This document shows, one piece after another, positions 6,638 through 32,537 of a DNA stretch of 32,537 nucleotides; position 1 is the first letter of the stretch; each line of letters starts with the position of its first letter. A program made the position numbers and the translations under genes. A model generated the notes under the pieces. It had not been told where the DNA came from. It did no database searches and was given only the letters and a program-made list of their open reading frames with translations. This DNA comes from a virus: UHGV virus genome UHGV-0139594; one strand, 5' to 3'.

Positions 6638-6992
6638 ACAGTTTAACAACACACTACCGTCGCTCGCAACTGATTGCGCTTCCTGTACCGGGTGGAAAAG
6701 CGAAGGTGGAGTATTGCTATGCAGTTAATGTACCTGGTGACAGGGAAATTGTAACCCACAGCTTTGCTGAGTGGGCTGTGGGTGATTTCAACCGGCAGAA
6801 GGAGACAGTCCTTTGCGACAAGTTAACCGCTGGTTCAAAGATCACTACGGAGTGCCCGTCAGAGTCATTCGTTGGGAGCCGGAAACACAACGAGTTATCT
6901 ACCTCCGCGAAGGCTATGAGCATGAGTGCTTCAGCCCGCTCGAACAGTTTCGTCGTAAATTCAGGGAAATAGAGGTCGGTCATGAGCACTAA
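6634..6992 (+). pseudogene. Hypothetical protein with apparent frameshift (two frames needed for a protein-like product)
   Basis: Frame of ORF 6634..6972 is protein-like to about residue 59, then turns into a Ser-rich tail. The -1 frame from about 6786 to its stop at 6990..6992 reads [61 protein letters not shown]-run at about 6811..6815 is the likely shift site. Confidence 0.5.
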
Positions 6993-7923
6993 ATTAACCG
7001 GCTATGTATGGGATGGTTGCGCTGCATCAGGCATGAAATTATCCAGCGTGGCAATTATGGCCCGCCTGGCTGATTTCAGTAATGACGAAGGTGTGTGCTG
7101 GCCATCAATTGAAACTATTGCCCGTCAGATTGGCGCGGGGATGAGTACCGTCAGGACGGCTATCGCACGGCTGGAAGCAGAAGGCTGGTTAACGCGTAAG
7201 GCGCGTCGCCAGGGTAACCGCAATGCGTCGAATGTTTATCAGCTTAACGTTGCGAAGCTTCAGGCAGCGGCATTTTCTCAACTGTCAGATTCTGACCCGT
7301 CAAAATCTGACGCATCAAAATCTGACCCGTCAAAATTTGATGCGTCGAAATCTGGCAAAAAAGCGGGTTTTCACCCGTCAGAATCTGGCGGGGATCCGTC
7401 AGTAAAATCAAAACATGATCCGTCAGATAAAAAACCTTCTCGTCCGGACGCTTCGCAACCGGACACGCAGACGGCTGAACAGGAGTTTTTAACTCGCCAT
7501 CCTGATGCGGTTGTATTCAGCCCTAAAAAGCGCCAGTGGGGAACGCAGGATGATTTGACCTGCGCACAGTGGCTCTGGAAAAAAATCATCGCCCTGTACG
7601 AGCAGGCCGCCGAATGTGACGGCGAGGTGGTTCGTCCCAAAGAACCGAACTGGACAGCCTGGGCAAACGAAATTCGCCTGATGTGTGTGCAGGATGGTCG
7701 TACTCACAAACAAATCTGCGAGATGTACAGCCGCGTCAGCCGCGATCCGTTCTGGTGCCGTAACGTGCTCAGCCCGTCGAAGTTGCGGGAAAAATGGGAT
7801 GAGCTTTCCCTGCGCTTATCACCGTCCGTCAGCACGTACACCGAAAAACGCGAAGACCCGTACTTCAAATCCAGTTACGACAACGTGGACTACAGCCAGA
7901 TCCCGGCAGGATTCAGGGGGTGA
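6982..7923 (+). CDS. Replication initiator / replisome organizer (lambda O-like role) with N-terminal wHTH
   Basis: N-terminus MARLADFSNDEGVCWPSIETIARQIGAGMSTVRTAIARLEAEGWL is a typical phage replication-protein wHTH; the gene contains an internal iteron array. Confidence 0.8.
   Translation: MSTKLTGYVWDGCAASGMKLSSVAIMARLADFSNDEGVCWPSIETIARQIGAGMSTVRTAIARLEAEGWLTRKARRQGNRNASNVYQLNVAKLQAAAFSQLSDSDPSKSDASKSDPSKFDASKSGKKAGFHPSESGGDPSVKSKHDPSDKKPSRPDASQPDTQTAEQEFLTRHPDAVVFSPKKRQWGTQDDLTCAQWLWKKIIALYEQAAECDGEVVRPKEPNWTAWANEIRLMCVQDGRTHKQICEMYSRVSRDPFWCRNVLSPSKLREKWDELSLRLSPSVSTYTEKREDPYFKSSYDNVDYSQIPAGFRG
7283..7402. repeat. Iteron array (putative ori) inside the replication initiator gene
   Basis: Tandem 15-bp units ACCCGTCAAAATCTG / ACGCATCAAAATCTG / ACCCGTCAAAATTTG / ATGCGTCGAAATCTG / ACCCGTCAGAATCTG plus degenerate copies, followed by an A-rich stretch. 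Encodes the SDSDPSKSDASKSDPSK low-complexity linker. Confidence 0.7.
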
Positions 7924-16001: not shown

Positions 16002-16496
16002 ATGGCTGGAACGGCGGGGCGTTCCGGGCGTCGCCCCAAGCCAACGGCGCGCAAGGCGCTGGCCGGAAACCCCGGCAAGCGAGCCCTGAACAAAGATGAA
16101 CCTGTTTTTACGCCCATCAAAGGTGTTGAGCCACCGGAGTGGTTCGCAGAAGAAAATCTCCCTCTCGCCACGATCATGTGGCAACTGACAACCAAAGAAC
16201 TCTGCGGTCAGGGCCTGCTGTGCGTGACTGACCTCGCGGTGCTTGAGCGGTGGTGCGTAGCCTATGAGTTCTGGCGACGTGCCGTGAAAAATATTGCCAG
16301 CCAGGGCAACACCATCACCGGTGCAATGGGCGGTATGGTCAAAAATCCGGAGCTGACCGCCAAGAAAGAACAGGAGTCCGAGATGAGCAGCACGGGGGCA
16401 ATGCTCGGACTCGACCCCAGCAGCCGCCAGCGTCTGATTGGCCTGGCGGGGCAGAAGAAAGCCACTAACCCGTTTCTGAAAATTATCGAATCATGA
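16002..16496 (+). CDS. Terminase small subunit (P27-family-like)
   Basis: AGGAG RBS before ATG 16002; basic N-terminus [14 protein letters not shown] typical of P27-type TerS; precedes the large terminase. Confidence 0.75.
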
Positions 16497-17344
16497 GCCG
16501 GAAATCTTACCCCAACGTAAATGCAGCCAATCAGTATGCCCGTCATGTCGTGCGCGGAAAGATTGTGGCCTGCCAGTTTGTGATTCAGGCCTGCCAGCGC
16601 CATCTTGATGACCTGATGGCGGAAAAAAGTAAGTCGTTTCGTTACCGCTTCGACAAGGACCTGGCTGAACGGGCCGCGAAATTTATTCAGCTGTTGCCGC
16701 ACACCAAGGGTGAGTGGGCATTCAAACGGATGCCCATCACGCTGGAGCCGTGGCAGCTATTTGTGATCTGCTGTGCGTTTGGCTGGGTCAATAAAGGCAC
16801 CCGGTTGCGCCGCTTCCGGGAGGTGTATACCGAAATCCCCCGTAAGAACGGCAAATCAGCAATCTCTGCCGGTGTTGCCCTGTATTGTTTTGCCTGTGAT
16901 AACGAGTTTGGCGCGGAAGTGTATTCCGGTGCCACGACAGAGAAACAGGCGTGGGAAGTCTTTCGCCCGGCGCGACTGATGTGTAAACGCACACCCATGC
17001 TGACGGAAGCGTTCGGGATTGAGGTTAACGCCTCAAACATGAACCGTCCGGAGGATGGCGCGCGGTTTGAACCGCTGATCGGTAACCCCGGTGATGGTTC
17101 ATCACCCCACTGTGCGGTGGTGGATGAATATCACGAGCACGCCACCGATGCGCTTTATACCACGATGCTTACCGGGATGGGGGCGCGACGTCAGCCACTG
17201 ATGTGGGCCATCACCACCGCCGGGTACAACATTGAGGGGCCGTGCTACGACAAGCGGCGGGAAGTTATCGAGATGCTCAACGGTTCGGTAACCCTGCGCA
17301 CATTATCGGTTATGGATCGGTGTTTGACTGTCGTTCTGAGCTGA
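16493..17344 (+). pseudogene. Terminase large subunit, truncated after the ATPase domain
   Basis: Walker B-like AVVDEYHEH and ITTAG motif present, but ORF is only 283 aa. Its last ~36 codons are an out-of-frame read of the prohead protease gene. No nuclease domain and no portal gene follow. Confidence 0.65.
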
Positions 17345-17832
17345 TATTTGGTTCATTCCGCGAAATCATCCGGCCCGGCGCTTTTGACGATGTGCTTGGT
17401 GATGATGTACGCGCACTGTTTAACCACGATCCTAATTTTATTCTTGGGCGTAGTGCAGCAGGCACGCTGAATCTTTCAGTTGATGAGCGCGGATTGCGCT
17501 ATGACATCCAGGCTCCGGAGACACAGACCATTCGTGATCTGGTGCTGGCCCCGATGCAACGTGGAGATATTAACCAGTCATCTTTTGCTTTCCGTGTCGC
17601 CCGTGACGGCGAGGAGTGGTATCAGGATGAGGACGGGGTTGTTATTCGCGAGATAACCCGCTTTTCCCGTCTGCTGGATGTCAGTCCTGTGACATATCCT
17701 GCCTATCAGGAGGCTGACTCGGCTGTTCGCTCCATGAAAGCATGGCAGGAGGCGCGCAACAGCGGCGCGCTACAGAAAGCCATTAATCAACGTATGGCGC
17801 GTGAGCGCGTCCTGACCCTTCTTAACGCGTAA
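17242..17832 (+). CDS. Prohead protease, HK97 family
   Basis: [10 protein letters not shown]...[12 protein letters not shown]...ALFNHD...[21 protein letters not shown] matches HK97 gp4-type protease motifs. Frame opens only at 17236, so start (GTG 17242) is uncertain. Confidence 0.75.
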
Positions 17833-20942: not shown

Positions 20943-21113
20943 ATGTTTGTGAAACCTGTTAAAGGGCGGTCAGTGCCTGACCCTGCCCGCGGTGACCTTT
21001 TGCCCACCGAAGGGCGAAATGTTGATGAGAACAACTACTGGCTGCGCCGTGAAGCAGCGGGTGATATCCGGCGCGTGAATAAAAAGGTGAACACCGATGA
21101 CGATAAGCTTTAA
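20943..21113 (+). CDS. Small conserved protein preceding the tail sheath (DUF2635-like, 56 aa)
   Basis: MFVKPVKGRSVPDPARGDLLPTEGRNVDENNYWLRREAAGDIRRV; below the 60-aa track cutoff; overlaps the sheath start. Confidence 0.6.
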   Translation: MFVKPVKGRSVPDPARGDLLPTEGRNVDENNYWLRREAAGDIRRVNKKVNTDDDKL

Positions 21114-22344
21114 CACCATTCCGTCGAATACGCTGGTTCCGCTGTTTTATGCGGAAATGGATAACTCGGCGGCGAATACTGCACAGGACAGCGGGGCATC
21201 GTTGCTGATTGGTCACGCCAATAACGGTGCAGAGATTGTTGCCAACAGTCTGGTGCTGATGCCGTCGGCAGACTATGCACGCCAGATTTGTGGTGCGGGA
21301 AGTCAGCTGGCGCGTATGGTCGAGGCTTATCGCCAGACCGATCCGTTTGGCGAGCTGTATGTGATTGCCGTTCCGGAAGCCACAGGCGCGGCGGCAACGG
21401 TTACGCTGACGGTGACCGGAGCAGCAACCGAAACCGGCACGGTGAATGTTTATGTGGGACGTACCCGCGTGCAGGCACCGGTGACCAACGGCGATAACGT
21501 CACGACGATTGCCAGCAGTATCCAGGATGCCATCAATGCCGTTCCGGCCCTGCCGTTTACGGCCTCATCTTCGGCAGGCGTGGTCACGCTGACCGCGCGT
21601 CATAAGGGGCTTTGCGGGAATGAAATTCCTGTCAGCCTCAATTACTACGGCTTTGGTGGGGGCGAAGTGCTGCCAGCGGGCGTACAGATTGCCGTGGCGA
21701 CGGGGAGCGCCGGAACGGGCGCTCCGGTTCTCACCGGTGCGGTGGCTGCAATGGCGGATGAGCCGTTTGATTATATTGGCTTGCCGTTCAACGACACGGC
21801 CTCCGTTAACACGCTGGTGACCGAGATGAACGATACCAGCGGTCGCTGGAGCTATGCGCGTCAGCTGTATGGTCATGTGTATACGGCAAAGATCGGCACG
21901 CTGTCAGAACTGGTGACCGCAGGTGACCAGTTTAACCAGCAGCACATTACCCTGGCGGGATACGAAAAAGACACTCAGACGCCAGCCGACGAGCTGGCGG
22001 CAAGCCGTACCGCCCGCGCAGCGGTGTTTATTCGCAACGATCCGGCACGTCCCACGCAGACCGGTGAGCTGGTGGGTATGCTGCCTGCACCGAAGGGGAA
22101 ACGGTTCACGATGACCGAGCAACAGACCCTGCTGTCTCATGGCGTGGCAACGGCGTATGTCGAAAGTGGGGTAAACGCTCTACGTGGCATACACAACGAT
22201 TTACAAGAGCTAAACGAAAGGCTTTACCGTGGTTTTAGCCTGACCGTCGAGGAAGTCGAGATCACCTTGTCCGGCATATTCAGATTCAACTTTCAGGCCC
22301 AGCAGCGCGGTAATCAGATCCACTTCAACACGGTTTGCGTGTGA
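21097..22344 (+). CDS. Contractile tail sheath protein (Mu gpL-like), probably 3'-truncated
   Basis: MTISFNTIPSNTLVPLFYAEMDNS ... GSQLARM ... VTLTARHKGLCGNEIPVSLNYYG match Mu-like sheath signatures. Protein is 415 aa against an expected ~490, and the sheath-like sequence seems to stop near 22150. Confidence 0.7.
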   Translation: MTISFNTIPSNTLVPLFYAEMDNSAANTAQDSGASLLIGHANNGAEIVANSLVLMPSADYARQICGAGSQLARMVEAYRQTDPFGELYVIAVPEATGAAATVTLTVTGAATETGTVNVYVGRTRVQAPVTNGDNVTTIASSIQDAINAVPALPFTASSSAGVVTLTARHKGLCGNEIPVSLNYYGFGGGEVLPAGVQIAVATGSAGTGAPVLTGAVAAMADEPFDYIGLPFNDTASVNTLVTEMNDTSGRWSYARQLYGHVYTAKIGTLSELVTAGDQFNQQHITLAGYEKDTQTPADELAASRTARAAVFIRNDPARPTQTGELVGMLPAPKGKRFTMTEQQTLLSHGVATAYVESGVNALRGIHNDLQELNERLYRGFSLTVEEVEITLSGIFRFNFQAQQRGNQIHFNTVCV

Positions 22345-22716
22345 ACGGTAATGAGCCTCAGAGAAATCATTAACCGCTACCAGCATAGCATCAGAACGGT
22401 TTGGATATTGGCGGCTGTATTGTTCCAGGTCACGAGAAGTAACAGCGTTAATACTGCCGACGTGTTTCATCTGGAAAAGTTTGTTTGACCATTCCTGACG
22501 TTTAGAGGCGTTCCAGTCGCTTTGAGCGTAAGGCGAGGTTTCCCCAGCTACCTGCACAAACTGATCAATCAGGTCGGTAAGAAGAATGCTGTTTTCTGTA
22601 TGATATTGCACATCGAACAGATCGAGATTAGTAATCAGGGTATTAAGTGCATTCTCATAAGCAAAAGGAGTTACTACCGCAGTATTAACGCCAAAATATG
22701 TTGATAAATCATTCAT
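22210..22716 (-). CDS. Hypothetical protein (168 aa), last gene of a minus-strand operon
   Basis: ORF in a 3-gene minus-strand cluster; its 3' end overlaps the sheath ORF tail. No confident homology. Confidence 0.45.
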   Translation of the reverse strand: MNDLSTYFGVNTAVVTPFAYENALNTLITNLDLFDVQYHTENSILLTDLIDQFVQVAGETSPYAQSDWNASKRQEWSNKLFQMKHVGSINAVTSRDLEQYSRQYPNRSDAMLVAVNDFSEAHYRSHANRVEVDLITALLGLKVESEYAGQGDLDFLDGQAKTTVKPFV

Positions 22717-22730
22717 TATTATTTTCCTTG

Positions 22731-23114
22731 TTAAGTCGTAGGGATCGCAAGTTCTTCATAACTAGCAATTACAAAGCCGAGAGATTGCAGTTTTGCAATA
22801 ACACTTGCCTTTTCCATGCTGTTAAATTCAATCCCATCTTCAGCCAGAATAACGAAAGTAGGATGTGCAACCACTACGCTTTCCTGTCCTTCATAAGCCG
22901 GTTCAACTACTACGTGAGCAATATCAGATGCGGTTGTTGCTTTGGTGCCATCGGCTTTCAGCAAAGCCCCGACAATAAGATCGTCAGTGAGAGGTGAAGC
23001 CAGTTTGACGAGGCGATCTTGCAGCACCGGATCAGCAGCGTAAGCTACTACCTTACAGCGTGAACGGGAGTTATCCGCATTCACTACTTTTAATTTTCCA
23101 TATGGGTTAGCCAT
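22731..23114 (-). CDS. Hypothetical protein (127 aa)
   Basis: ORF in the same operon. Weak resemblance to head-decoration-type proteins (ADGTKATTASDIAHVVVE), not reliable. Confidence 0.45.
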   Translation of the reverse strand: MANPYGKLKVVNADNSRSRCKVVAYAADPVLQDRLVKLASPLTDDLIVGALLKADGTKATTASDIAHVVVEPAYEGQESVVVAHPTFVILAEDGIEFNSMEKASVIAKLQSLGFVIASYEELAIPTT

Positions 23115-23118
23115 AAGA

Positions 23119-23316
23119 TTATTTTCCTTTCAGTTGTTTAATTTTAGATTTAAGGGCATCAGCAAGACTAACCGCATCAGCCGATTTAAATAATTGAGCA
23201 GTGGTAGAACGAAGACTTTCGGGAGTAACTCCCAACAGTGCGGCAACCTTAATGAGGTTTTCATCACTAACAATCATCGTTTCCCCGTCTTTGCTGATAA
23301 TCATTTCTTGTTTCAT
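23119..23316 (-). CDS. Hypothetical small protein (65 aa)
   Basis: Start taken at the internal ATG (MKQEMIISKDG) with an AGGAA-type RBS; first gene of the cluster. Confidence 0.4.
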   Translation of the reverse strand: MKQEMIISKDGETMIVSDENLIKVAALLGVTPESLRSTTAQLFKSADAVSLADALKSKIKQLKGK

Positions 23317-24300
23317 AAATAACGTTCCTGTTAGTGCCAGACAAATAAAAAGCCCCAATGCCGTAAGAGGTTAATTCTGACCAGCAAAGGGGCTTTAACG
23401 TGCGGGCAATTACATAATTGATAAGTTAAACTATAAGAGGATTAAACATATCAGCAAATACACTTTTTAAATATACTTGATGATATGCTTAAAGGGTGAA
23501 TAGATACTCCTGAAAACATGCTCTTAGGAAAACATGCGGAATCAATCAGGAATATCTATTCGGGGCGCGGTGGCCAACCGCTATCTTTCATGGTGTGGAT
23601 GCACCAGTCAGATTTTAAGGAATCACTATTCCAATCTACTCACAGATTAAATTTTTAATAATGATTAACTACACCAACAGTAATCTACCGTTTCAGAAAA
23701 TCGTTTTTACAACCAAAGCTTATAGATCCGCATTCTATAAAACCCGTTTTGCTATCAATATTTCCAAAGTTTATTGCACCATTCTTAGCTAAACTCTCTC
23801 TGCTTGCGGCTAACGCTATGCAGATGATTGTTTTTGACAACAACTTAATAGATTGTTCTGTTACTAACTTCTGTCATTAAATAATAGTTTAATGATGTTA
23901 GTAAATAGTTATAAAATATAACTATCAGTGTAAGGCTCTTTAATATTTTCTGACAAAATAAGGAGCTTTAGGATAAGCATAGATGAAAAATAAGAGCGGG
24001 AAGGGCAAGGAGATAACACCTACCCGCTTTTATCAAAATTAAGCACAATGCCTAACAACATTCATCAACACAACGTAGAAACAATCAACAATCAAAGAGG
24101 GAGTTATGATTATTCTAAAACTTCTTGAGAGATGGAAGGTAATATTTGTTAGAGGTTAATGCCACTCAACCTTTGAGGCTATCACCTTCCATATGCAGGG
24201 ATTTATGACAGTAGAAGGATTAACACCAGTCAAAACCTTTTTATCTACCCCTAATATCATTATATAATGAAATCGTTATAAATGCAAATGATTTTCATTA

Positions 24301-24609
24301 TCATTTAGAGAAAATAGCACTTTTTGCTAAATCGTCTACTAATTGCTGAATCTCTTCACTTGCAGCCTTTAACGTGCTGGCGGTGTCTGTGATGGTTTGA
24401 GTGCACATCTTGGCATCGTCCTCAATTAGCTCTAAATCGCTCACCAGAGAGATAAAATCGTCAAGGCTTACATTCACCTTCATTAAGCTAATAACGCATT
24501 GAGAGAGCGTGTAATCGCATAAATCTGAATAGGCTTGATTTATTCTTGTTTGTAGTGAGATAGTCAGATCTAAAAGTTGTTCCATTGCATTGCTAATATC
24601 TTCTTCCAT
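24301..24609 (-). CDS. Hypothetical acidic protein (102 aa)
   Basis: AAGGAG RBS; start overlaps upstream stop (TAATG); AT-rich. Confidence 0.5.
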   Translation of the reverse strand: MEEDISNAMEQLLDLTISLQTRINQAYSDLCDYTLSQCVISLMKVNVSLDDFISLVSDLELIEDDAKMCTQTITDTASTLKAASEEIQQLVDDLAKSAIFSK

Positions 24610-24854
24610 TATGCGGCTTCTCCTTGTAATGCATCATTAATCATATTCAATACGATGTTAAAAGGTGTCTTGAGCGTCAGCACTTCATCACGATAACGCT
24701 CTAATGCTTCGTAGTCTTCTGTTTCTTTTGCCAGTCGGATTAACTCAGCATAGTTTTTTGCATCAGACAGGATCATCTGAAATAATTGTGTTTCTTGAAT
24801 ATAGCCAATCATTATTTTTCCTTTTTCGAATATTTTCATTGGGCGCTTATACAT
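24609..24854 (-). CDS. Hypothetical protein (81 aa or shorter)
   Basis: Coupled to downstream gene; alternative start at internal Met with AAAGGA RBS. Confidence 0.45.
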   Translation of the reverse strand: MYKRPMKIFEKGKIMIGYIQETQLFQMILSDAKNYAELIRLAKETEDYEALERYRDEVLTLKTPFNIVLNMINDALQGEAA

Positions 24855-24869
24855 ACACCCATCATTTTA

Positions 24870-25253
24870 TTAGTTAGAACGTTTGTTAGAAGCTAATGTA
24901 TCTTCTAAATGAGCCATCAGATCGACTTCCGATGCACCACCTACACAATTATTGAAAGCGTTAAATCCCAAAAAATGATGATAGGAGCTAAACCCTAAAA
25001 GTTGCCAACGCTTCAGAGTGCCATCAGAAATTATTGTTTGTTTTCTTGTTCTTGGGCGAAAGTAAACGCCTGGCATTGACTGGATTATTTCTAATTCTTT
25101 ATTACTTAATTCAGGGGATTCTATTTCAAGAATAAATATTATCTCTTCCCCTGGAATTTCATTATTGGTATGTGTCGGTGGACGTTGTCTTTTTGAATTG
25201 AAATTACTGTTTTTTTCAATACGTTTTAAGTTATTCTTTTTCTTTCTTCCCAT
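24870..25253 (-). CDS. Hypothetical protein with basic N-terminus (127 aa)
   Basis: AAGAGGG RBS; N-terminal Lys/Arg-rich segment MGRKKKNNLKRIEKN. Confidence 0.5.
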   Translation of the reverse strand: MGRKKKNNLKRIEKNSNFNSKRQRPPTHTNNEIPGEEIIFILEIESPELSNKELEIIQSMPGVYFRPRTRKQTIISDGTLKRWQLLGFSSYHHFLGFNAFNNCVGGASEVDLMAHLEDTLASNKRSN

Positions 25254-25627
25254 TTTCCCTCTTTTTATGTGGATTATAAAAACTTAATGCCATTGTTACG
25301 ATGAATATCGCCATAAATGCATTTGCCATATGTATTGCCCGATCTGTTGTTATTGATTGTTTGTGAGAAACAATTCAAAATCTTTGTTTAATTTCAAAAG
25401 ACGAAATGTAGTGCTGTTAATCCCTTCATAATCCAGCACACCGAACGATGTAAAATGATTTAACCAACAATTTCTGATAGTGCGCTGTAGCCGCCTAAAC
25501 TACAAAAGCTAACCACTGTCGGTGGTGAAAACTCTATTTCCAAAATAGCTTTTAAAATGTTGTATCCGCTTTCAGTTATTTCAATAGTTTTGTTTCCTAT
25601 AGTGATGTTATAAGTCATTTATTCTCC

Positions 25628-26221
25628 TTAGAAGGGTAGTGAATCATATATTGTGCTCTCACTTTTGAGATCAATTATCAAAGAGTCAAAATCATTTTCA
25701 CAAAGATAGATATTCTTTGAATCTAATGCTCGTTTTACAAAATCTTCTGTTTCTTCGTGCGGTGGTTTCTTCTTATCAAGGGAAAGAAGCCAAGTAAAAA
25801 TTTCGGGCCGCTCAGGGAACTCTGGCTCTTGTGTTTCTTCTTCAACGATGATTTCGGAAACATTCAATATTTCATTAGATTCGTCTTCTTTCTCAGAAGG
25901 ATCAGGTAGTGATGATTCTCCTTTTGGAATATCAAGCACTCGATAAAGGTTAGAGCTTCCTGGTCGTGCATCTTTTATAATTAATCCCATTTCGAGCAAT
26001 TTCTTAACCCTTTCTTCTGCTGCTCTTGGTGTTATGCCAAAAACATCGCCTATCTTAGCGTAAGAGGGAAATGCACGATCAAACCCTCTCAGATAGCAGT
26101 AAAGGTTTTTAGCACTATCTGTAAATTTATGCCCGTTTACTTGGCTTATTTTTAGAATCCACATAGGAACTTTTACAAATTGTTCTTCATTAATCATTAA
26201 AAATCTCCTTGATGTAATCAC
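25628..26221 (-). CDS. Rep-like winged-helix protein (putative replication initiator of an iteron replicon)
   Basis: N-terminal wHTH (NLYCYLRGF...SYAKIGDVFGITPRAAEERVKKLLEMGLI) resembling replication-initiator DNA-binding domains; acidic C-terminal half; iteron array about 1.2 kb upstream. Confidence 0.55.
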   Translation of the reverse strand: MITSRRFLMINEEQFVKVPMWILKISQVNGHKFTDSAKNLYCYLRGFDRAFPSYAKIGDVFGITPRAAEERVKKLLEMGLIIKDARPGSSNLYRVLDIPKGESSLPDPSEKEDESNEILNVSEIIVEEETQEPEFPERPEIFTWLLSLDKKKPPHEETEDFVKRALDSKNIYLCENDFDSLIIDLKSESTIYDSLPF

Positions 26222-26250
26222 GCTCTACGGCGCTACTATGGTGATAAAAA

Positions 26251-26421
26251 TCACTTGCTTTTGTTTGAGAGTGTTTCAGCCTCTCTTTTCAACATATCAA
26301 GAATGTAATCTGTAACAGTGATACGTTTACTTCTGGCTTCTTTAAACAACACCTGAAATACTTCATCAGGAATATGAAAGCAAGTGCGTGGTTGTCTTTT
26401 CTTTTCTGTAGTTTCGCTCAT
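26251..26421 (-). CDS. Small ribbon-helix-helix-like protein (56 aa)
   Basis: MSETTEKKRQPRTCFHIPDEVFQVLFKEARSKRITVTDYILDMLKREAETLSNKSK; GGAGAAGGAGAA RBS; below track cutoff. Confidence 0.5.
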   Translation of the reverse strand: MSETTEKKRQPRTCFHIPDEVFQVLFKEARSKRITVTDYILDMLKREAETLSNKSK

Positions 26422-26442
26422 AGTTTTCTCCTTCTCCTGTTA

Positions 26443-26625
26443 TTATTCTTTCTCTGCTTCTGCCTTACGCAGTTCATCAATAATTTTTAGTGCATCGTCA
26501 AAGCATTTTTCACGCTCTGGATAACCTCTACTCCTTGCCATATTACGATTCATTACTATTTGATGTCGTGTTAGCTCACCTTTTTTAAATGCCTCTGCGA
26601 CGTGTTTCGGTGTAAACCATTTCAT
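26443..26625 (-). CDS. Hypothetical small basic protein (60 aa)
   Basis: ORF immediately upstream of the RHH gene on the same strand. Confidence 0.45.
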   Translation of the reverse strand: MKWFTPKHVAEAFKKGELTRHQIVMNRNMARSRGYPEREKCFDDALKIIDELRKAEAEKE

Positions 26626-27454
26626 AAAAACTCCTTATTCAGTTAAAAGAAAAAAAACACCTTGCAAGCCTGACGGCTTCAAAGTGCATTGATTTTGATT
26701 ATTTAGAGAAGAATGTTTTTCTGTCCCTCTAATACCTATTATTACATATAAAGAAACATTTGTCAATACCCTTTTCGCAAAAATACGATCTTTTTCAGCA
26801 GCTTAAAATTTTTCTTAGCAATTCGTGCTCTTATGAGTACTCCTATTCTTCCTTATTCTCTAAAACGCTCTCTGACGAGGTTTTGATAAATACAATACAT
26901 TCCCTTATGTAGAGGCTGTTTAGCTCGCCAGAGGCTTATTTAAGCGGTAGAAACTTATTTAACCTTCAACTACTAAAACCATTCTTTCTTTTTTGTTTGT
27001 TGTTGGTTGTTGTCTGTGTCTATGTGCTAACATCGCTAATGCGTAGCACACAAGGTTATTGCACTCGTCAGAGTATTGCACAATAGATTTTCTCTTAAAT
27101 AGATTGATGATCGTTAGATTGGCGTAAGCCTCATCAATGGAACTATTGAAGCGCACAGCGCATAGACACTAACAACCATTCGCTTACGCTCAGGTTATTG
27201 CACATAGTAGATTACATATTCGTTGTGAGCGGCATTAGCGAACATAGATCTACTAACTAACATCAACAAACAAAAACTATGTGTTATGACAAGCAGTCTA
27301 ACGACTAACACTCTAACTTGTGCAAGGTTCTGGCGAATGCCAATAGATTAAGGGATAGTCGTTAGACTCCCCTAACGGGTATCCCTATAATTATTCTTTA
27401 AAGATAAAGGAATTTATAAAAGATAATTTAATTGTAGTTTGATAGTTGATCTAA

Positions 27455-27600
27455 TAGGTAACAAAATTCTGTAGGGGTGGCTAACAGTTTTCTGTGGGGG
27501 TGTCTAACATAATTCTGTTAGGGTTGGGGTAACAGTTTTCTGTTAGGGTGCATATTTCTTTAAAAGTTAAGGATAACAGAATTCTGTGGGGGTAGCTCAC
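27455..27600. repeat. Iteron array: five copies of a ~23-bp unit (AACAnnnTTCTGTnGGGGTnG)
   Basis: AACAAAATTCTGTAGGGGTGG, AACAGTTTTCTGTGGGGGTG, AACATAATTCTGTTAGGGTTGG, AACAGTTTTCTGTTAGGGTG, AACAGAATTCTGTGGGGGTAG at roughly 23-bp phasing. Confidence 0.7.
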
Positions 27601-28709
27601 AGTGACCTACCGTTACATCCATTTATCACATAACATCTGTGCAATGATCTTCTAAAAGTGTTTCTTGCTACCAAAATTAAACATCTAAAACAGGCTTAAA
27701 TTCAATGTAATTGATGATTAATCCCTGTGTAATTCCTACGTAAAAATTCAATGAAAAGTAGCTTAAAAGTGCAATTCTTACTTTCTTCACTTTTACATCA
27801 CTTTCGCAAAGCCTTGTGTAATGCGGCTACAGCGCACTATCAGAAATTGTTGATTAAAAATCAATCTATTATTTGTCGAACAAGTTTCTTTCACGTGTTG
27901 AAAATTTATGTTTAAATTTGCTTTCAATCTTTAATGTGCAATCACTATCAACATAAAAATAAAAAACCTTCTATTATATTTCATAGCATACAAAAGTCAA
28001 TAGAAGCCCTCTCGTGCTCCTACGTAAAAAATCCACCACTTTTCCCCTGATACATCAACTCAAGGCGTTCCATGTGTTCCTTAGTGCATATTACGATTAT
28101 TATGTTAAATGGATTTTGGCCCATATTTTGACCTGCACCCGCATAAACACTGGTTTCATCGCTTACAGCCCTTGTGAGACGTGGTGCTGTTTCTAGCATC
28201 TGATCCGACATAAAACCGATCATTCTCGTGTTTAGTGAAAGTTTAGTGAGAGACATTACAGAAAGGCTTTCTGTGTAATGATTTAATAGGTAAAAACGAT
28301 GTTGATTACGCAAGAAAATTCCTTGCTGATATTTGGGGATTCTGGATTTTCCAGATCGGGGGGCGGTGAAAATCGCGTTAAGCACTTCTCGCAATCTAGC
28401 CATAAGGGAAGGGATAAAGGTATTTAGATGTATTTATAGCTATTTATGGCTATTTATTTTTTATTTACCTTAATTTAAAAATAGCCTTATAAATCAATAA
28501 GATACAGGACTATCTGTTTATATTTTAATCAATTAAATCAAGTTTAATACCCTTAAACCACCTGAAAATAACCTTAAATACCCCAATAATTAATTTTAAC
28601 GATTCCTGTGCTCTCTCCTACTTTGCAAAAAGGCAAAAAAAGCCCATAGAGGCACAAAAATATTAAAACCAATAACTCAATAATGCCTCTACAAGAGCTT
28701 CTCTAACTG

Positions 28710-29261
28710 TTATTTTTGATTGAGCTTACATCGATCCCATTGTTCTGTCGTTCTTGTGATACGATCGCTTATTGCAAAATTTAATAGCCAAGAATCATAA
28801 GCATAAACCTTGCTTTTATCATCTGCCATCATAAACTTGCCGTTAGCATTCAGTTTTGGCGATATCAAATATGTTCCATTTAATCTGTTAGCCTTGAAGC
28901 TATCTGCATATAAAGTTACTTGTGCGTATCCCTGAACACGTAATGCCCCTAAACGTCCGTTTTCGATTGATGCAATAGAGTATTGGCAAAGATAATTTTT
29001 GGCAGCAGGAGTCGTTTTCACTCCTTCAGTTTTTCGTGAATTATTTGATTGCGAGCTTCGAATAGAGGATGAAGGATAAGAGTATGAATGATTTTTATAA
29101 GATGAAGGGGCATAAGAGCCAATCCGGCACGTCTTACCAACAGCTATACACGAGTTACCACAAGGTATTCCTTTTTTGCAGTTTTTAGCAACTGCGGTAG
29201 AAGTTCCCCCTACAAACAACGTTGTAAAAATCATCATCCTCACAAATGCAGACCTGCGCAT
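28710..29261 (-). CDS. Secreted Cys-rich protein of unknown function (183 aa)
   Basis: N-terminal signal peptide (MMIFTTLFVGGTSTAVA), Cys cluster CKKGIPCGNSCIAVGKTC, Ser-rich linker, ~100-aa C-terminal domain; AT-rich. Confidence 0.55.
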   Translation of the reverse strand: MRRSAFVRMMIFTTLFVGGTSTAVAKNCKKGIPCGNSCIAVGKTCRIGSYAPSSYKNHSYSYPSSSIRSSQSNNSRKTEGVKTTPAAKNYLCQYSIASIENGRLGALRVQGYAQVTLYADSFKANRLNGTYLISPKLNANGKFMMADDKSKVYAYDSWLLNFAISDRITRTTEQWDRCKLNQK

Positions 29262-29655
29262 ATAACCTCCCTTTTTAGATTATTCTTATGCTATACACTT
29301 GCTTAAAAAAATAAAAGTGCCCTCTAACCTTTATCGTTCTCCATCACAATTTGAGAAGTAAGAGCAGCAACCTCAAGCGATGATCACGTTTGCGCCGATT
29401 TCAGAGAAAAAGACAGTAACTGAACTCACTATGAAGGCTAAACGTATCTTTACACTTGATGAAAACGTTCAAAAAACAACCTAACCCCAAAATTCAACAA
29501 ATAACAACATATTGTTTTTAAAAGAAAATTAAATCTACATCAAATATTGGTTGACGTAGATTGAGGTGAATAGTAGACTATTAGGGTAAATTGCCATTCT
29601 TGCAACATCATTTAATGCATGTTCTAATCCTCCTATCCCAAAACCGGAGGAAGTT

Positions 29656-29814
29656 ATGCATTTACTTTCAAAACATCTTCACACTATTCACTTTCTCGTT
29701 ATTGATGTATTCATTGTGGCTATTAGTTACCGCATTTGCATCGCTTCCAGTGAAGAGATGGACGCTGTTGCAATTATTGCTCAAGCAATGGCGATGTTAA
29801 CTAAACGACTTTAA
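29656..29814 (+). CDS. Hypothetical small hydrophobic protein (52 aa)
   Basis: GGAGG RBS 5 nt before ATG; converges on a hairpin shared with the next small gene. Confidence 0.35.
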   Translation: MHLLSKHLHTIHFLVIDVFIVAISYRICIASSEEMDAVAIIAQAMAMLTKRL

Positions 29815-29880
29815 TAATTTCACTATCAGGCGCATAAACACATCTTTGATCGCTGGATGTGTTATGCGCCTACTGGTGAT

Positions 29881-30033
29881 TCAATCCTTAAGCCATTTCA
29901 ACTCACTAAGGAGTTTTCTTTCTTCGTTCTCTCTCTGTTTACGCTCTAGCCAGGCTTTTCCTTCTGGCGTAGGCAGGAACTTACGAGCGTGAATCTTGCG
30001 GTTATTACGTTTGATAGCTGCAATGTTTTTCAT
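29881..30033 (-). CDS. Hypothetical small basic protein (50 aa)
   Basis: AGAGG RBS; MKNIAAIKRNNRKIHARKFLPTPEGKAWLERKQRENEERKLLSELKWLKD. Confidence 0.35.
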   Translation of the reverse strand: MKNIAAIKRNNRKIHARKFLPTPEGKAWLERKQRENEERKLLSELKWLKD

Positions 30034-30639
30034 CGTGTGCCTCTGTATTCATATGAAAATTAACAAGTTACATACTACACAGGGAGACTACGCATAAAAC
30101 ACAATACAAGTAAAGATACATTTTCAAGACAATAGGAGCCATAAAGCGCCTTTGATGGTTATACCAAAAAATAAGCGCCGTAGGCGTATCCACTAAAAAG
30201 GGCTTTTTCACAAAAGCTATGAAGTCTTAGCAGTTCTTCTCTTATCAGGCACCCGTTGTACTCCGGTGGACGAAACCGTGCTAGAGCTTGATTCTTTCCC
30301 GATCAAGTTAGGTTTTGAAGAGGTGGGCTTTAATCCACTATTGCACTTAAAACTCTTCCCATCATTTAGCCTGTTTATCCTCTGCAACGTCTCACGACGT
30401 GTAGCATCATTGGACACCGCGCCAGGTGTGGAACATCTTGCTAAGAGTTTTGGTAGAAGGTTTAGAGACGGTGGCACGTCTTCCAGCTTCAAAGGAACTT
30501 GTTACGAGGTTGAGCCTGGGAACTACTCGCCCATACGTGTTAAACTACCAAAAGCCCATAACAACGTATAGGCGTTTGTAAGTGATAACAGAAGATACAA
30601 TTTCTTAGAGAAGTTAAGCTAAGTTATTGATTTTCTTGA

Positions 30640-30685
30640 TGGTGCCGATAATAGGAGTCGAACCTACGACCTTCGCATTACGAAT
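30640..30685 (-). repeat. Inverted 46-bp copy of the thrW 3' end (anticodon loop to CCA): att core remnant
   Basis: TGGTGCCGATAATAGGAGTCGAACCTACGACCTTCGCATTACGAAT is the exact reverse complement of tRNA positions 31..76 (window 109..154). Confidence 0.85.
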
Positions 30686-30889
30686 TATAAGAATCCGCTT
30701 CTAATTCAAAGCATTACCCCATCAACACTGCGCTCACACGTCCCGCCACATCAAAACATGTAAAGCCTTGCAAGCCATTGTGAGGCCTTATGTGTCTCAG
30801 TTTTGTCCCACTACGACCTGCACAGAAAATAAGAAAATAGCGGTGATATCAAACAGTACAGAAGTCTTTTTTCTTTCAAATGGAGAAAC

Positions 30890-31168
30890 TGATTAACCCG
30901 TTTAATTGTACTCCTCATGGGCAATCAGCAGTCCTCAGAGTAATGGAATGGCAGAAAGGTTCGTGAAAACGATGAAGGAAGACTACATCGCGTTCATGCC
31001 GAAACCGAATGTAAGAACGGCATTGCATAATCTTGCAGTGGCGATCGAACATTACAATGGAAACCATCCGCACAGTGCGTTGGGTTATCGCTCTCTGCGA
31101 GAATATCGACGTCAGCGGGTAACGTTAACTTAAGATACACCCCCTGTCTGGAAATAAGGGGGCAAGAA
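30890..31168 (+). mobile_element. IS2-like (IS3 family) remnant: 3' end of transposase OrfB plus terminal repeat
   Basis: [59 protein letters not shown] resembles the IS2 OrfB C-terminus; downstream TGTCTGGAAATAAGGGGGCAA resembles the IS2 right end. No upstream transposase sequence. Confidence 0.6.
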
Positions 31169-31174
31169 CAATGA

Positions 31175-31927
31175 TCAGATTCCCTGGTGAGTAAGAATTT
31201 TACTTTCTGAACTCCTCTGAGAGTATTGACTTGGAGAAATACCAAAATAACGTCTAAATACATAAGTAAAGTATGAGACACTGGCATAACCACAGACCTT
31301 AGCTACTTTACTAATAGGATAACAACGAGTGCTGAGTAAATATTCAGCCATTTGCATCCTCTCATCAAGTATGATCTTACTGAATGATACCCCCTCTTCT
31401 TTCAATTTCCTCTTTAGTAAACTTTCGCTGAGATATAATCTTGATGATATATCCTTAAGACGCCATGGTGCAGATAAATCCGTATGAATAATCGTTTTAA
31501 CTTTAGCCCCTGTGCTTTTCAAACATCCAAACAGAAATACTCCAAATTGTTTTTCAGAAGAAAATGCAGAGAGACATGTAAAAGCAATAGACTCATCAAA
31601 AATTTCTATGTATTCAGCACAGTGATTAGCCCAACTAATTAATCCTTTAATTAAACTGAAGTCAGCAAAGTTTATTTTTAAATAAGATGGATATTCCCTA
31701 CAATCAGAAATATCCCTTAAGTTATTAGCTTTCAAATAGCGACTAATAAACTCAGCGCCAAAATCCGCCACTATCACTCTTTCAGGATACGTCAGGAAAA
31801 AATCTCTAGAGCTAGAGTCGACAAGTACAGATGAACCTCTCTCCAGAAACACAATCTCTTTTCCTAAATAAACATCAAAGGACTCCAAAATCAATATAAC
31901 TGAACATGTAGTTGCCATATCATCCAC
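31175..31927 (-). CDS. AraC-family transcriptional regulator, AppY/Rns-like
   Basis: C-terminal double HTH (WRLKDISSRLYLSESLLKRKLKEEGVSFSKIILDERMQMAEYLL...VAKVCGYASVSYFTYVFRRYFGISPSQY); AT-rich gene with AT-rich upstream region. Confidence 0.8.
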   Translation of the reverse strand: MDDMATTCSVILILESFDVYLGKEIVFLERGSSVLVDSSSRDFFLTYPERVIVADFGAEFISRYLKANNLRDISDCREYPSYLKINFADFSLIKGLISWANHCAEYIEIFDESIAFTCLSAFSSEKQFGVFLFGCLKSTGAKVKTIIHTDLSAPWRLKDISSRLYLSESLLKRKLKEEGVSFSKIILDERMQMAEYLLSTRCYPISKVAKVCGYASVSYFTYVFRRYFGISPSQYSQRSSESKILTHQGI

Positions 31928-32410
31928 CCAATTTAACTGAAACTAGGATGAAGTATATGCATATAAAGTTCACTTTGCCAAACTTCAGTATAAAAAACCA
32001 CATAAAAAATAGGGTGTGATAAAAAATACCGTAACAATAAAGCAAAGGATTATAAATTCCGTTACAGTTACAAATGATACTCAAGAAACAATTCCTTAGG
32101 AAAAACTTATTTACAGCCAATAAGTAAGACACTTATATGATATCAAGTTTTCATAAAACATAACTAGGCTAAATAGCTTCGCCTAATACCGCTACACTTT
32201 TGCCAGCCCATGTGTGCCTCCGGGTATTGACCCCTTCTCTACGCAACTTCAGTTCCCACCACCAACTTTGCGGCAGCTTTGTAGGATCAATGTCTAAAAG
32301 AATAATGGTGACCGATAAGAAAACGACTGAATAACTGCAGATTTTCGCTCGAAATCTTCCTGTCAGATCCATAGCGAATCAAGTGCTGAATGTCACAGTA
32401 TCGAACAGAA

Positions 32411-32537
32411 GGTAATGACTCCAACTTATTGATAGTGTTTTATGTTCAGATAATGCCCGATGACTTTGTCATGCAGCTCCACCGATTTTGAGAACGACAG
32501 CGACTTCCGTCCCAGCCGTGCCAGGTGCTGCCTCAGA
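32411..32537 (-). mobile_element. IS1, partial (terminal inverted repeat and insB 3' end), cut by window edge
   Basis: GGTAATGACTCCAACTTATTGATAGTGTTTTATGTTCAGATAATGCCCGATGACTTTGTCATGCAGCTCCACCGATTTTGAGAACGACAGCGACTTCCGTCCCAGCC matches the IS1 end as I recall it. Confidence 0.85.

Follow-up and report, generated by a model that had tools for sequence, protein, structure and literature searches.

The right end of the virus genome UHGV-0139594, a stretch of 32,537 nucleotides (nt) referred to here as the window, carries a gene for an AraC/XylS-family transcription regulator that lies between the remnant of an IS2-like insertion sequence (IS) and the end of an IS1 element (Table 1). From its sequence and surroundings we identify this gene as an intact allele of patE, the acid-resistance activator gene of the thrW prophage of Escherichia coli O157:H7 (Z0321 in EDL933, ECs_0287 in Sakai), that is, as a gene which is already studied, already known and ordinary. 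An open reading frame (ORF) in a six-frame list extends over 31175-31927 on the minus strand and gives 250 residues from a GTG codon, the length stated in the original prediction, which had been made from the DNA letters and their ORFs. This figure stands for the mechanical ORF, but the GTG was rejected as the start and the ATG at 31918 taken instead, on the evidence of the starts of 11 homologs, the annotation of the identical gene of strain D1 by the Prokaryotic Genome Annotation Pipeline (PGAP) and a Shine-Dalgarno-like motif, GGTGGA, located 4 nt 5' of the ATG. The regulator most likely begins at this ATG and comprises 247 residues, with its stop codon at 31175-31177.

Table 1. Features at the right end of the window, in window coordinates
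Feature	Position	Strand	Evidence
50-nt copy of the 3' half of thrW, right attachment repeat of an Sp1/CP-933H-type prophage	30636-30685	-	98% complementary to 109-158
Right end of an Sp1-type prophage, between the attachment repeat and the IS remnant	30686-30811		98.9% identity to Sakai locus L003, 14647-14474
IS3-family, IS2-like element, 5'-truncated, 251 bp	30920-31170	+	rve_3 match, IS2 TnpB profile, IS2 alignment, Sakai annotation
patE allele, 247-residue AraC/XylS-family activator	31175-31918	-	Domain searches, homolog alignment, Sakai/D1 comparison
Predicted sigma-70-like promoter, TTGGCA / 18-nt spacer / TATACT, 10/12 positions	31952-31981	-	Consensus match
Relic of the chromosomal region downstream of tRNA-Ser gene serU	32225-32410		95.7-96% identical to the K-12 yodB-serU intergenic region
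IS1 end (right inverted repeat, IRR, side), cut off by the window end	32411-32537	-	Identity to annotated IS1A copies

The presence of an intact AraC-family regulator, as originally predicted, is borne out by domain searches and by comparison with homologs. The C-terminal ~100 residues form the double helix-turn-helix that defines the AraC/XylS family, scoring above the Pfam gathering cut-offs for both HTH_AraC (60.6 bits; cut-off 26.6) and HTH_18 (58.2 bits over residues 161-238; cut-off 33.6). The N-terminal domain resembles those of YdeO and GadW. The window protein aligns end to end with homologs of 243-247 residues, and a truncated or extended regulator was rejected on this ground. One homolog, 79% identical, has an equal length and a similar C-terminus, which indicates that the IS insertion 4 bp downstream of the gene has left the protein unaltered. 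Database relatives of 306-308 residues (P0003-P0006) are read-through or upstream-extended forms of the same 247-residue protein, and entries of 167-179 residues are decayed patE alleles present elsewhere. Because the gene is convergent with the IS remnant and, in Sakai, lies 824 bp from a divergent GIY-YIG gene, it is monocistronic. Truncation, or membership of a known intact operon, had been named at the outset as the findings that would speak against the original prediction; neither is seen.

Of the 247 residues, 244 are identical to those of ECs_0287 from O157:H7 strain Sakai, the substitutions relative to Sakai being F18L, S22I and V227I, and the protein is identical to WP_032170462.1 of strain D1. 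At the DNA level the O157:H7 copies are 99.5% identical to the window gene, which is matched at 99% identity or better in many E. coli genomes, O157:H7 strains among them. The position of the gene agrees with this. In Sakai, prophage Sp1 occupies the tRNA-Thr gene thrW, and ECs_0287 (744 nt, annotated as 'transcription regulator') lies at the right end of Sp1; next come a remnant of ISEc48 and, after it, the thrW repeat dividing Sp1 from prophage Sp2. The EDL933 locus is laid out in this way too, at the same coordinates (309101-309844), where the gene is the sole one of AraC type in the thrW prophage. Window DNA from 30920 to 32410 is 98.9% identical to Sakai Sp1 DNA, and the order of attachment repeat, IS remnant, regulator and AT-rich spacer is common to the two. 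The window protein is thus nearly identical, from end to end, to that of O157:H7, and its gene has the position of a patE ortholog, at the right end of a thrW prophage and beside an IS3-family remnant and a thrW repeat, although the module is inverted in the window. At a coverage of at least 80%, patE is present in 654 of 5426 complete genomes (~12% of complete E. coli), well beyond enterohaemorrhagic E. coli (EHEC), and its carriers include isolates from dog, chicken, food and wastewater as well as pathogens.

Previous studies indicate what this gene does. Z0321 has been listed as 'putative regulator (prophage CP-933H), O-island 8', with a six-fold dependence on RpoS, and was well expressed in stationary phase on EDL933 arrays (PMC2907692); ECs0287 is induced as cells pass into stationary phase (PMC2241611). 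A 2024 review gives patE as z0321 on O-island 8 and describes PatE as an AraC/XylS activator of gadB, gadC, gadE and hdeAB, which works through the -132 to -45 interval of the hdeA promoter and lowers the expression of six genes in the enterocyte-effacement locus (LEE) (PMC10877973). The label 'virulence-type', which the original prediction had attached to the regulator, does not suit an allele of a gene whose product is published as activating acid resistance and reducing LEE expression. The family and this near-identical published protein lead us to expect that the window PatE would bind AT-rich promoter DNA through its C-terminal double helix-turn-helix, for instance in the -132 to -45 interval of the hdeA promoter, would activate the glutamate-dependent acid-resistance regulon (gadE, gadBC, hdeAB) and would lower LEE expression indirectly; patE itself would be expressed in stationary phase in an RpoS-dependent manner.

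Comparisons with the K-12 paralogs show full-length identities of 36% to YdeO, 33% to GadW and 28% to AppY, and an identity of 35% to GadX in the C-terminal part only. The equivalog cut-offs of NCBIfam are not reached: the YdeO profile (NF007407) aligns over residues 4-238 of the 250-residue ORF with 148.1 bits against a cut-off of 348, and the GadX profile (NF007432) gives 110.9 bits against a cut-off of 500, in the C-terminal part only. The closest solved structure is the DNA-binding domain of GadX (89 bits), and a group of 243-residue E. coli proteins (P0013, P0014) is ~53% identical to the window protein. In a lambdoid prophage, the gene for an 84%-identical PatE homolog, P0007, is flanked by those for antiterminator Q and holin (locus L006, 6001-6735). 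The interval between Q and holin is a classic position for prophage cargo, and is the slot also of the Shiga toxin genes. The location of P0007 agrees with the literature, in which PatE, PsrA/B and AppY are seen as inputs that prophages bring into the glutamate decarboxylase (GAD) system (PMC10057817).

The regulator had been described as AppY/Rns-like. The first part of this description is fair, given the 28% identity and the grouping with YdeO, GadW and AppY, whereas the likeness to Rns is confined to the C-terminal part. It might nevertheless be proposed that the protein is a virulence activator of the Rns/CfaD/AggR type, acting on an adhesin or fimbrial operon, since phmmer matches it to CsvR, Rns and ToxT with E-values of ~1e-14 to 1e-16. 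These matches, however, are limited to residues ~70-232 and score 54-62 bits (61-62 for CsvR and Rns), below the 89 bits of the GadX DNA-binding domain, whereas the homology over the full length is with YdeO, GadW and AppY. Full-length similarity to Rns-type proteins and linkage to a fimbrial or adhesin operon would be expected of a regulator of this type, and the window protein has neither; no such operon adjoins patE in the window, Sakai, EDL933, D1 or WCHEC020031. Moreover, the carriers of patE are not pathogens alone. We regard a role of this kind as very improbable.

The element behind patE is what remains of a member of the IS2 group of the IS3 family. A 75-residue ORF on the plus strand (30906-31133) holds the C-terminal ~70 codons of the transposase, with an rve_3 match of 55.8 bits in Pfam and an alignment to positions 223-290 of 301 in the NCBIfam IS2 TnpB profile. 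The DNA is 73% identical to positions 1090-1326 of the 1331 of K-12 IS2, and the peptide 68% identical to residues 223-290 of InsD. Homology to the IS starts at ~30920, not at 30890, and ends at 31170 with the terminal repeat TGTCTGGAAATAAGGGGGCAAGAACA, the IS2 counterpart of which is TGTCTGGAAATATAGGGGCAAATCCA. A DDE transposase with an rve integrase core and an IS2-type terminal repeat are thus both recognisable, in an element of which only the 3' 251 bp are left; the Sakai record labels the homologous stretch 'ISEc48, family IS3, partial'. The remnant lacks ~80% of the element and is unable to transpose. The gap between its end and the stop codon of patE is 4 bp, so that the few base pairs originally predicted between the stop codon and a 5'-truncated IS2-like element are found as described. 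Because this junction is common to Sakai, EDL933, D1 and WCHEC020031, the remnant is an old scar inherited with patE. It occurs in two forms, of 470 bp in Sakai and of 251 bp in the window, D1 and WCHEC020031, and the shorter form has ~108 bp of diverged sequence on its left.

On the other side of the gene, the AT-rich upstream region of the original prediction is present, with a G+C content of 33.6% over 305 bp, compared with 34.9% in patE and ~50-58% in the prophage body. This composition is compatible with H-NS binding. The predicted promoter, the best sigma-70-like match, is intact, ~34 nt 5' of the patE ATG and ~430 bp from IS1. Z0321 is well expressed and RpoS-dependent (PMC2907692), so that the allele without IS1, at any rate, is not just silent. 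A scan of 29000-32537 against Rfam (E <=0.1) gave no RNA family.

The 186 bp that adjoin IS1 were considered as a part of IS1 or of another mobile element, and this was rejected: they are a relic of the downstream flank of serU, and the homology end initially placed at 32410 was the end of the query. The serU-flank sequence is found at the yodB-serU locus in almost all E. coli genomes. Sakai has the whole relic (L003, 12449-12797), which consists of 349 bp, the 3' 71 nt of serU and 278 bp of flank, and the window keeps the part before IS1. The relic suggests either that the prophage end or the patE module was once at serU, or that flanking DNA was picked up by aberrant excision.

IS1 begins at 32411 with GGTAATGACTCC..., an end that we take to be the IRR of IS1, and the homology to Sakai, where the locus has no IS1, goes no further than 32410. 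All 127 nt from there to the end of the window match the annotated IS1A copies of D1, which identifies the element. Its edge is 492 nt from the ATG of patE and 483 nt from the GTG, in agreement with the distance of about 480 bp originally predicted, and its transposase genes read in the direction of patE, the IS1 coding sequences of D1 being annotated on the strand of the regulator. Comparison of the locus across strains, which the original prediction had proposed as a check, distinguishes the ancestral remnant junction from the window-type IS1 junction, present in 11 of the 5426 complete genomes. Junctions were counted with junction-spanning queries (200 bp for the window type); a count of 442 genomes at a coverage of at least 80% was rejected, as it did not require the IS1 part. 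Because the junction is found in so few genomes compared with the 654 that have patE, the insertion is recent and lineage-specific.

A second, independent IS1, in the same orientation and 64-73 bp nearer to patE, is seen in 27 complete genomes, including WCHEC020031, AMA1167 and YD786. In WCHEC020031 (locus L005, 7708-8475) a ~10-bp overlap at window positions 32338-32347 is consistent with target duplication. A different arrangement is found in strain D1 (locus L001, 13776-17017), in which two inverted IS1 copies, with their IRR ends outward, bracket 1.7 kb that comprise a fragment of a hypothetical gene, ysgD and corA; the window-type IS1 is one arm of this structure. In D1 it replaces 180 bp of the spacer upstream of patE and target duplication is absent; at the patE locus IS1 has thus acted as a rearrangement substrate. 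The original view that IS activity has shaped the locus is correct, and insertion sequences do lie on both sides of the gene. Only IS1 is recent, however; the IS2-like remnant marks no local event, and the coding sequence is unaltered. Taken as a whole, the original interpretation is partly supported.

Two independent insertions into one intergenic region, both in the orientation of patE and found in 11 and 27 genomes, could mean that IS1 is functional here. In such a case the broken AT-rich tract, read-through or an outward promoter would derepress patE and raise acid resistance, and the recurrence would reflect selection. The low G+C content of the upstream DNA is in keeping with this, and it is established that an IS can activate H-NS-silenced operons, bgl being an example. 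However, the two insertions together account for only ~38 of the ~654 patE-positive genomes, and each count may stem from one clonal lineage. IS1 prefers AT-rich targets, so recurrence is to be expected without selection. IS1 transcription is weak, and IS1 is polar. The window IS1 is separated from the promoter-like site by ~430 bp, Z0321 needs no IS1 to be well expressed, and in D1 the element belongs to a larger rearrangement in which 180 bp were deleted, which points to scrambling rather than fine-tuning. We consider a functional IS1 to be distinctly unlikely. IS1 is probably neutral for patE, an activating role being a minority possibility; that recurrent IS1 insertions relieve silencing or raise patE expression, and so make commensal and multidrug-resistant lineages of E. 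coli more acid-resistant, seems decidedly improbable.

The state of the prophage itself raises another question. The window starts with the proA-thrW spacer and an intact tRNA-Thr(CGT) gene, thrW (79-154), followed by the integrase gene (169-1332) and a prophage with repressor, replication, DUF968, terminase and capsid genes. The two copies of the 50-nt thrW repeat, 30.5 kb apart, are inverted, whereas a normally integrated element would have direct repeats. Sakai has a matching thrW repeat where Sp1 meets Sp2, and 30638-30811, which contains two terminator-like hairpins (30765-30799), shares 98.9% identity with the right end of Sakai Sp1. All prophage matches end at 22172-22173, at about codon 359 of the tail-sheath gene, which lacks its C-terminal domain (context 21097-22716). 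Approximately 51 bp of unassigned sequence join the truncated sheath gene (22173) to an AT-rich island (22225) that is read backwards, and everything from 22225 to the window end, patE included, is inverted relative to thrW and the integrase gene. The simplest reading is an inversion with its ends in the sheath gene and the island, which would have carried the patE module along. The 22173/22225 junction was not found in the 5426 complete E. coli genomes, the GTDB species representatives or IMG/VR, and is either rare or an assembly artefact. The gene for the large terminase subunit also appears to be split (16493-17832), with a 283-residue ORF that has the ATPase domain only and then an overlapping ORF of 196 residues, which suggests that the prophage is defective.

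With a prophage in this condition, with its sheath gene truncated and fused to an inverted island and its terminase ORF short or split, patE could be a silent relic, an H-NS-silenced cargo gene that contributes nothing in this strain. The AT-rich DNA at patE and the truncated and frameshifted alleles in the population (P0003-P0006, P0009 and P0010) are consistent with such a view. Yet the ORF of patE is intact and apparently under constraint, with three amino acid changes relative to Sakai across distant lineages; the promoter-like site and the Shine-Dalgarno-like motif are retained, and the near-identical O157 gene is expressed and gives phenotypes. We consider a silent relic to be unlikely.

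We conclude that, very probably, the locus comprises an intact patE as cargo of a thrW prophage, an old IS2-like scar and a recent IS1, with both insertion sequences passive. In this arrangement patE would be a cargo ('moron') gene at the right end of a lambdoid, e14-like thrW prophage (Sp1 in Sakai; CP-933H, or O-island 8, in EDL933). The insertion of IS1 into the AT-rich intergenic region has spared both the coding sequence and the proximal promoter-like site, and the two IS elements would be passive scars or rearrangement substrates, not regulatory parts. Some points weigh against this conclusion. The promoter is a consensus match, and the whole of 30600-32537 has no more than two promoter-like sites by prediction, a lower number than shuffled sequence gives. 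That IS1 was inserted twice independently, in one orientation and ~70 bp apart, could mean that the element is not neutral. The link between z0321 and ECs_0287 rests on position, annotation and the text of the review, not on a sequence printed in a paper, so that it is strong but not formally closed. Finally, the activity of the window allele, with its three substitutions relative to Sakai, is assumed.

Further features are seen in the remainder of the window. Six iteron-like repeats of the TCAAAATCTGACCCG type, spaced at 15 bp, lie at 7270-7392 inside the ORF 6982-7923 and look like a lambdoid replication origin within an O-type gene. The island (22225-30635) is ~8.4 kb in length, has a G+C content of 35-39% and contains few long ORFs; three of its ORFs were scanned against Pfam, giving no match for two and a sub-threshold HTH_36 match for the third. 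In other strains the island adjoins a copy of thrW, and in BA92 it extends to a tyrosine integrase gene of its own beside a yagP fragment. A 36-nt inverted repeat (25459-25494 and 27823-27858, 97% complementary) brackets 2.3 kb of the island, and four direct repeats of ~31 nt, of the type GGxTAACAGxxTTCTGTxGGGGT, are clustered at 27456-27601.

For annotation, the result is that the gene should be labelled patE, an acid-resistance activator of the thrW prophage, instead of an unknown virulence regulator, and it has little importance beyond that. IS1, as a strain-level polymorphism, might be used to mark lineages, or might offer a natural experiment in how patE is regulated. The comparison of genomes has some modest use, in that it places patE beyond EHEC and shows its IS2-like neighbour to be ancestral.

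Among related regulators, the window PatE is a paralog of YdeO, GadW, GadX and AppY and an ortholog of none of them, and it differs from them in genomic location and regulation. Like PatE, AppY is prophage-encoded and homologous over the full length, at 28% identity, and it activates gadE (PMC10057817). PsrA and PsrB are AraC-like prophage cargo of O-islands 50 and 57; they are activators of gadE and hdeA and, by way of the hdeA promoter region that PatE also uses, repress type III secretion (PMC10877973). Their likeness to PatE, as described in the literature, is one of role; a blastn search at 'distant' sensitivity gave no second match to patE in O157 genomes, and PsrA/PsrB are thus not close to patE at the DNA level.

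The IS remnant resembles IS2 (K-12 IS2A) in that it aligns with the last ~240 bp and has a similar terminal repeat, TGTCTGGAAATA..GGGGCAA. With identities of only 73% in nucleotides and 68% in amino acids, however, it is a relative and not IS2 itself, corresponding to ISEc48 in the Sakai record. The locus as a whole matches the PatE locus of Sakai and EDL933 in its place at the right end of a thrW prophage, in the IS2-like (ISEc48) remnant, in the thrW repeat and in the AT-rich spacer with its serU relic. It differs from both in having IS1 492 bp upstream of the ATG, where they have none. It differs from Sakai in the length of the IS remnant (251 bp instead of 470 bp), and in that the module of the window is inverted relative to thrW and abuts the AT-rich island instead of prophage Sp2.

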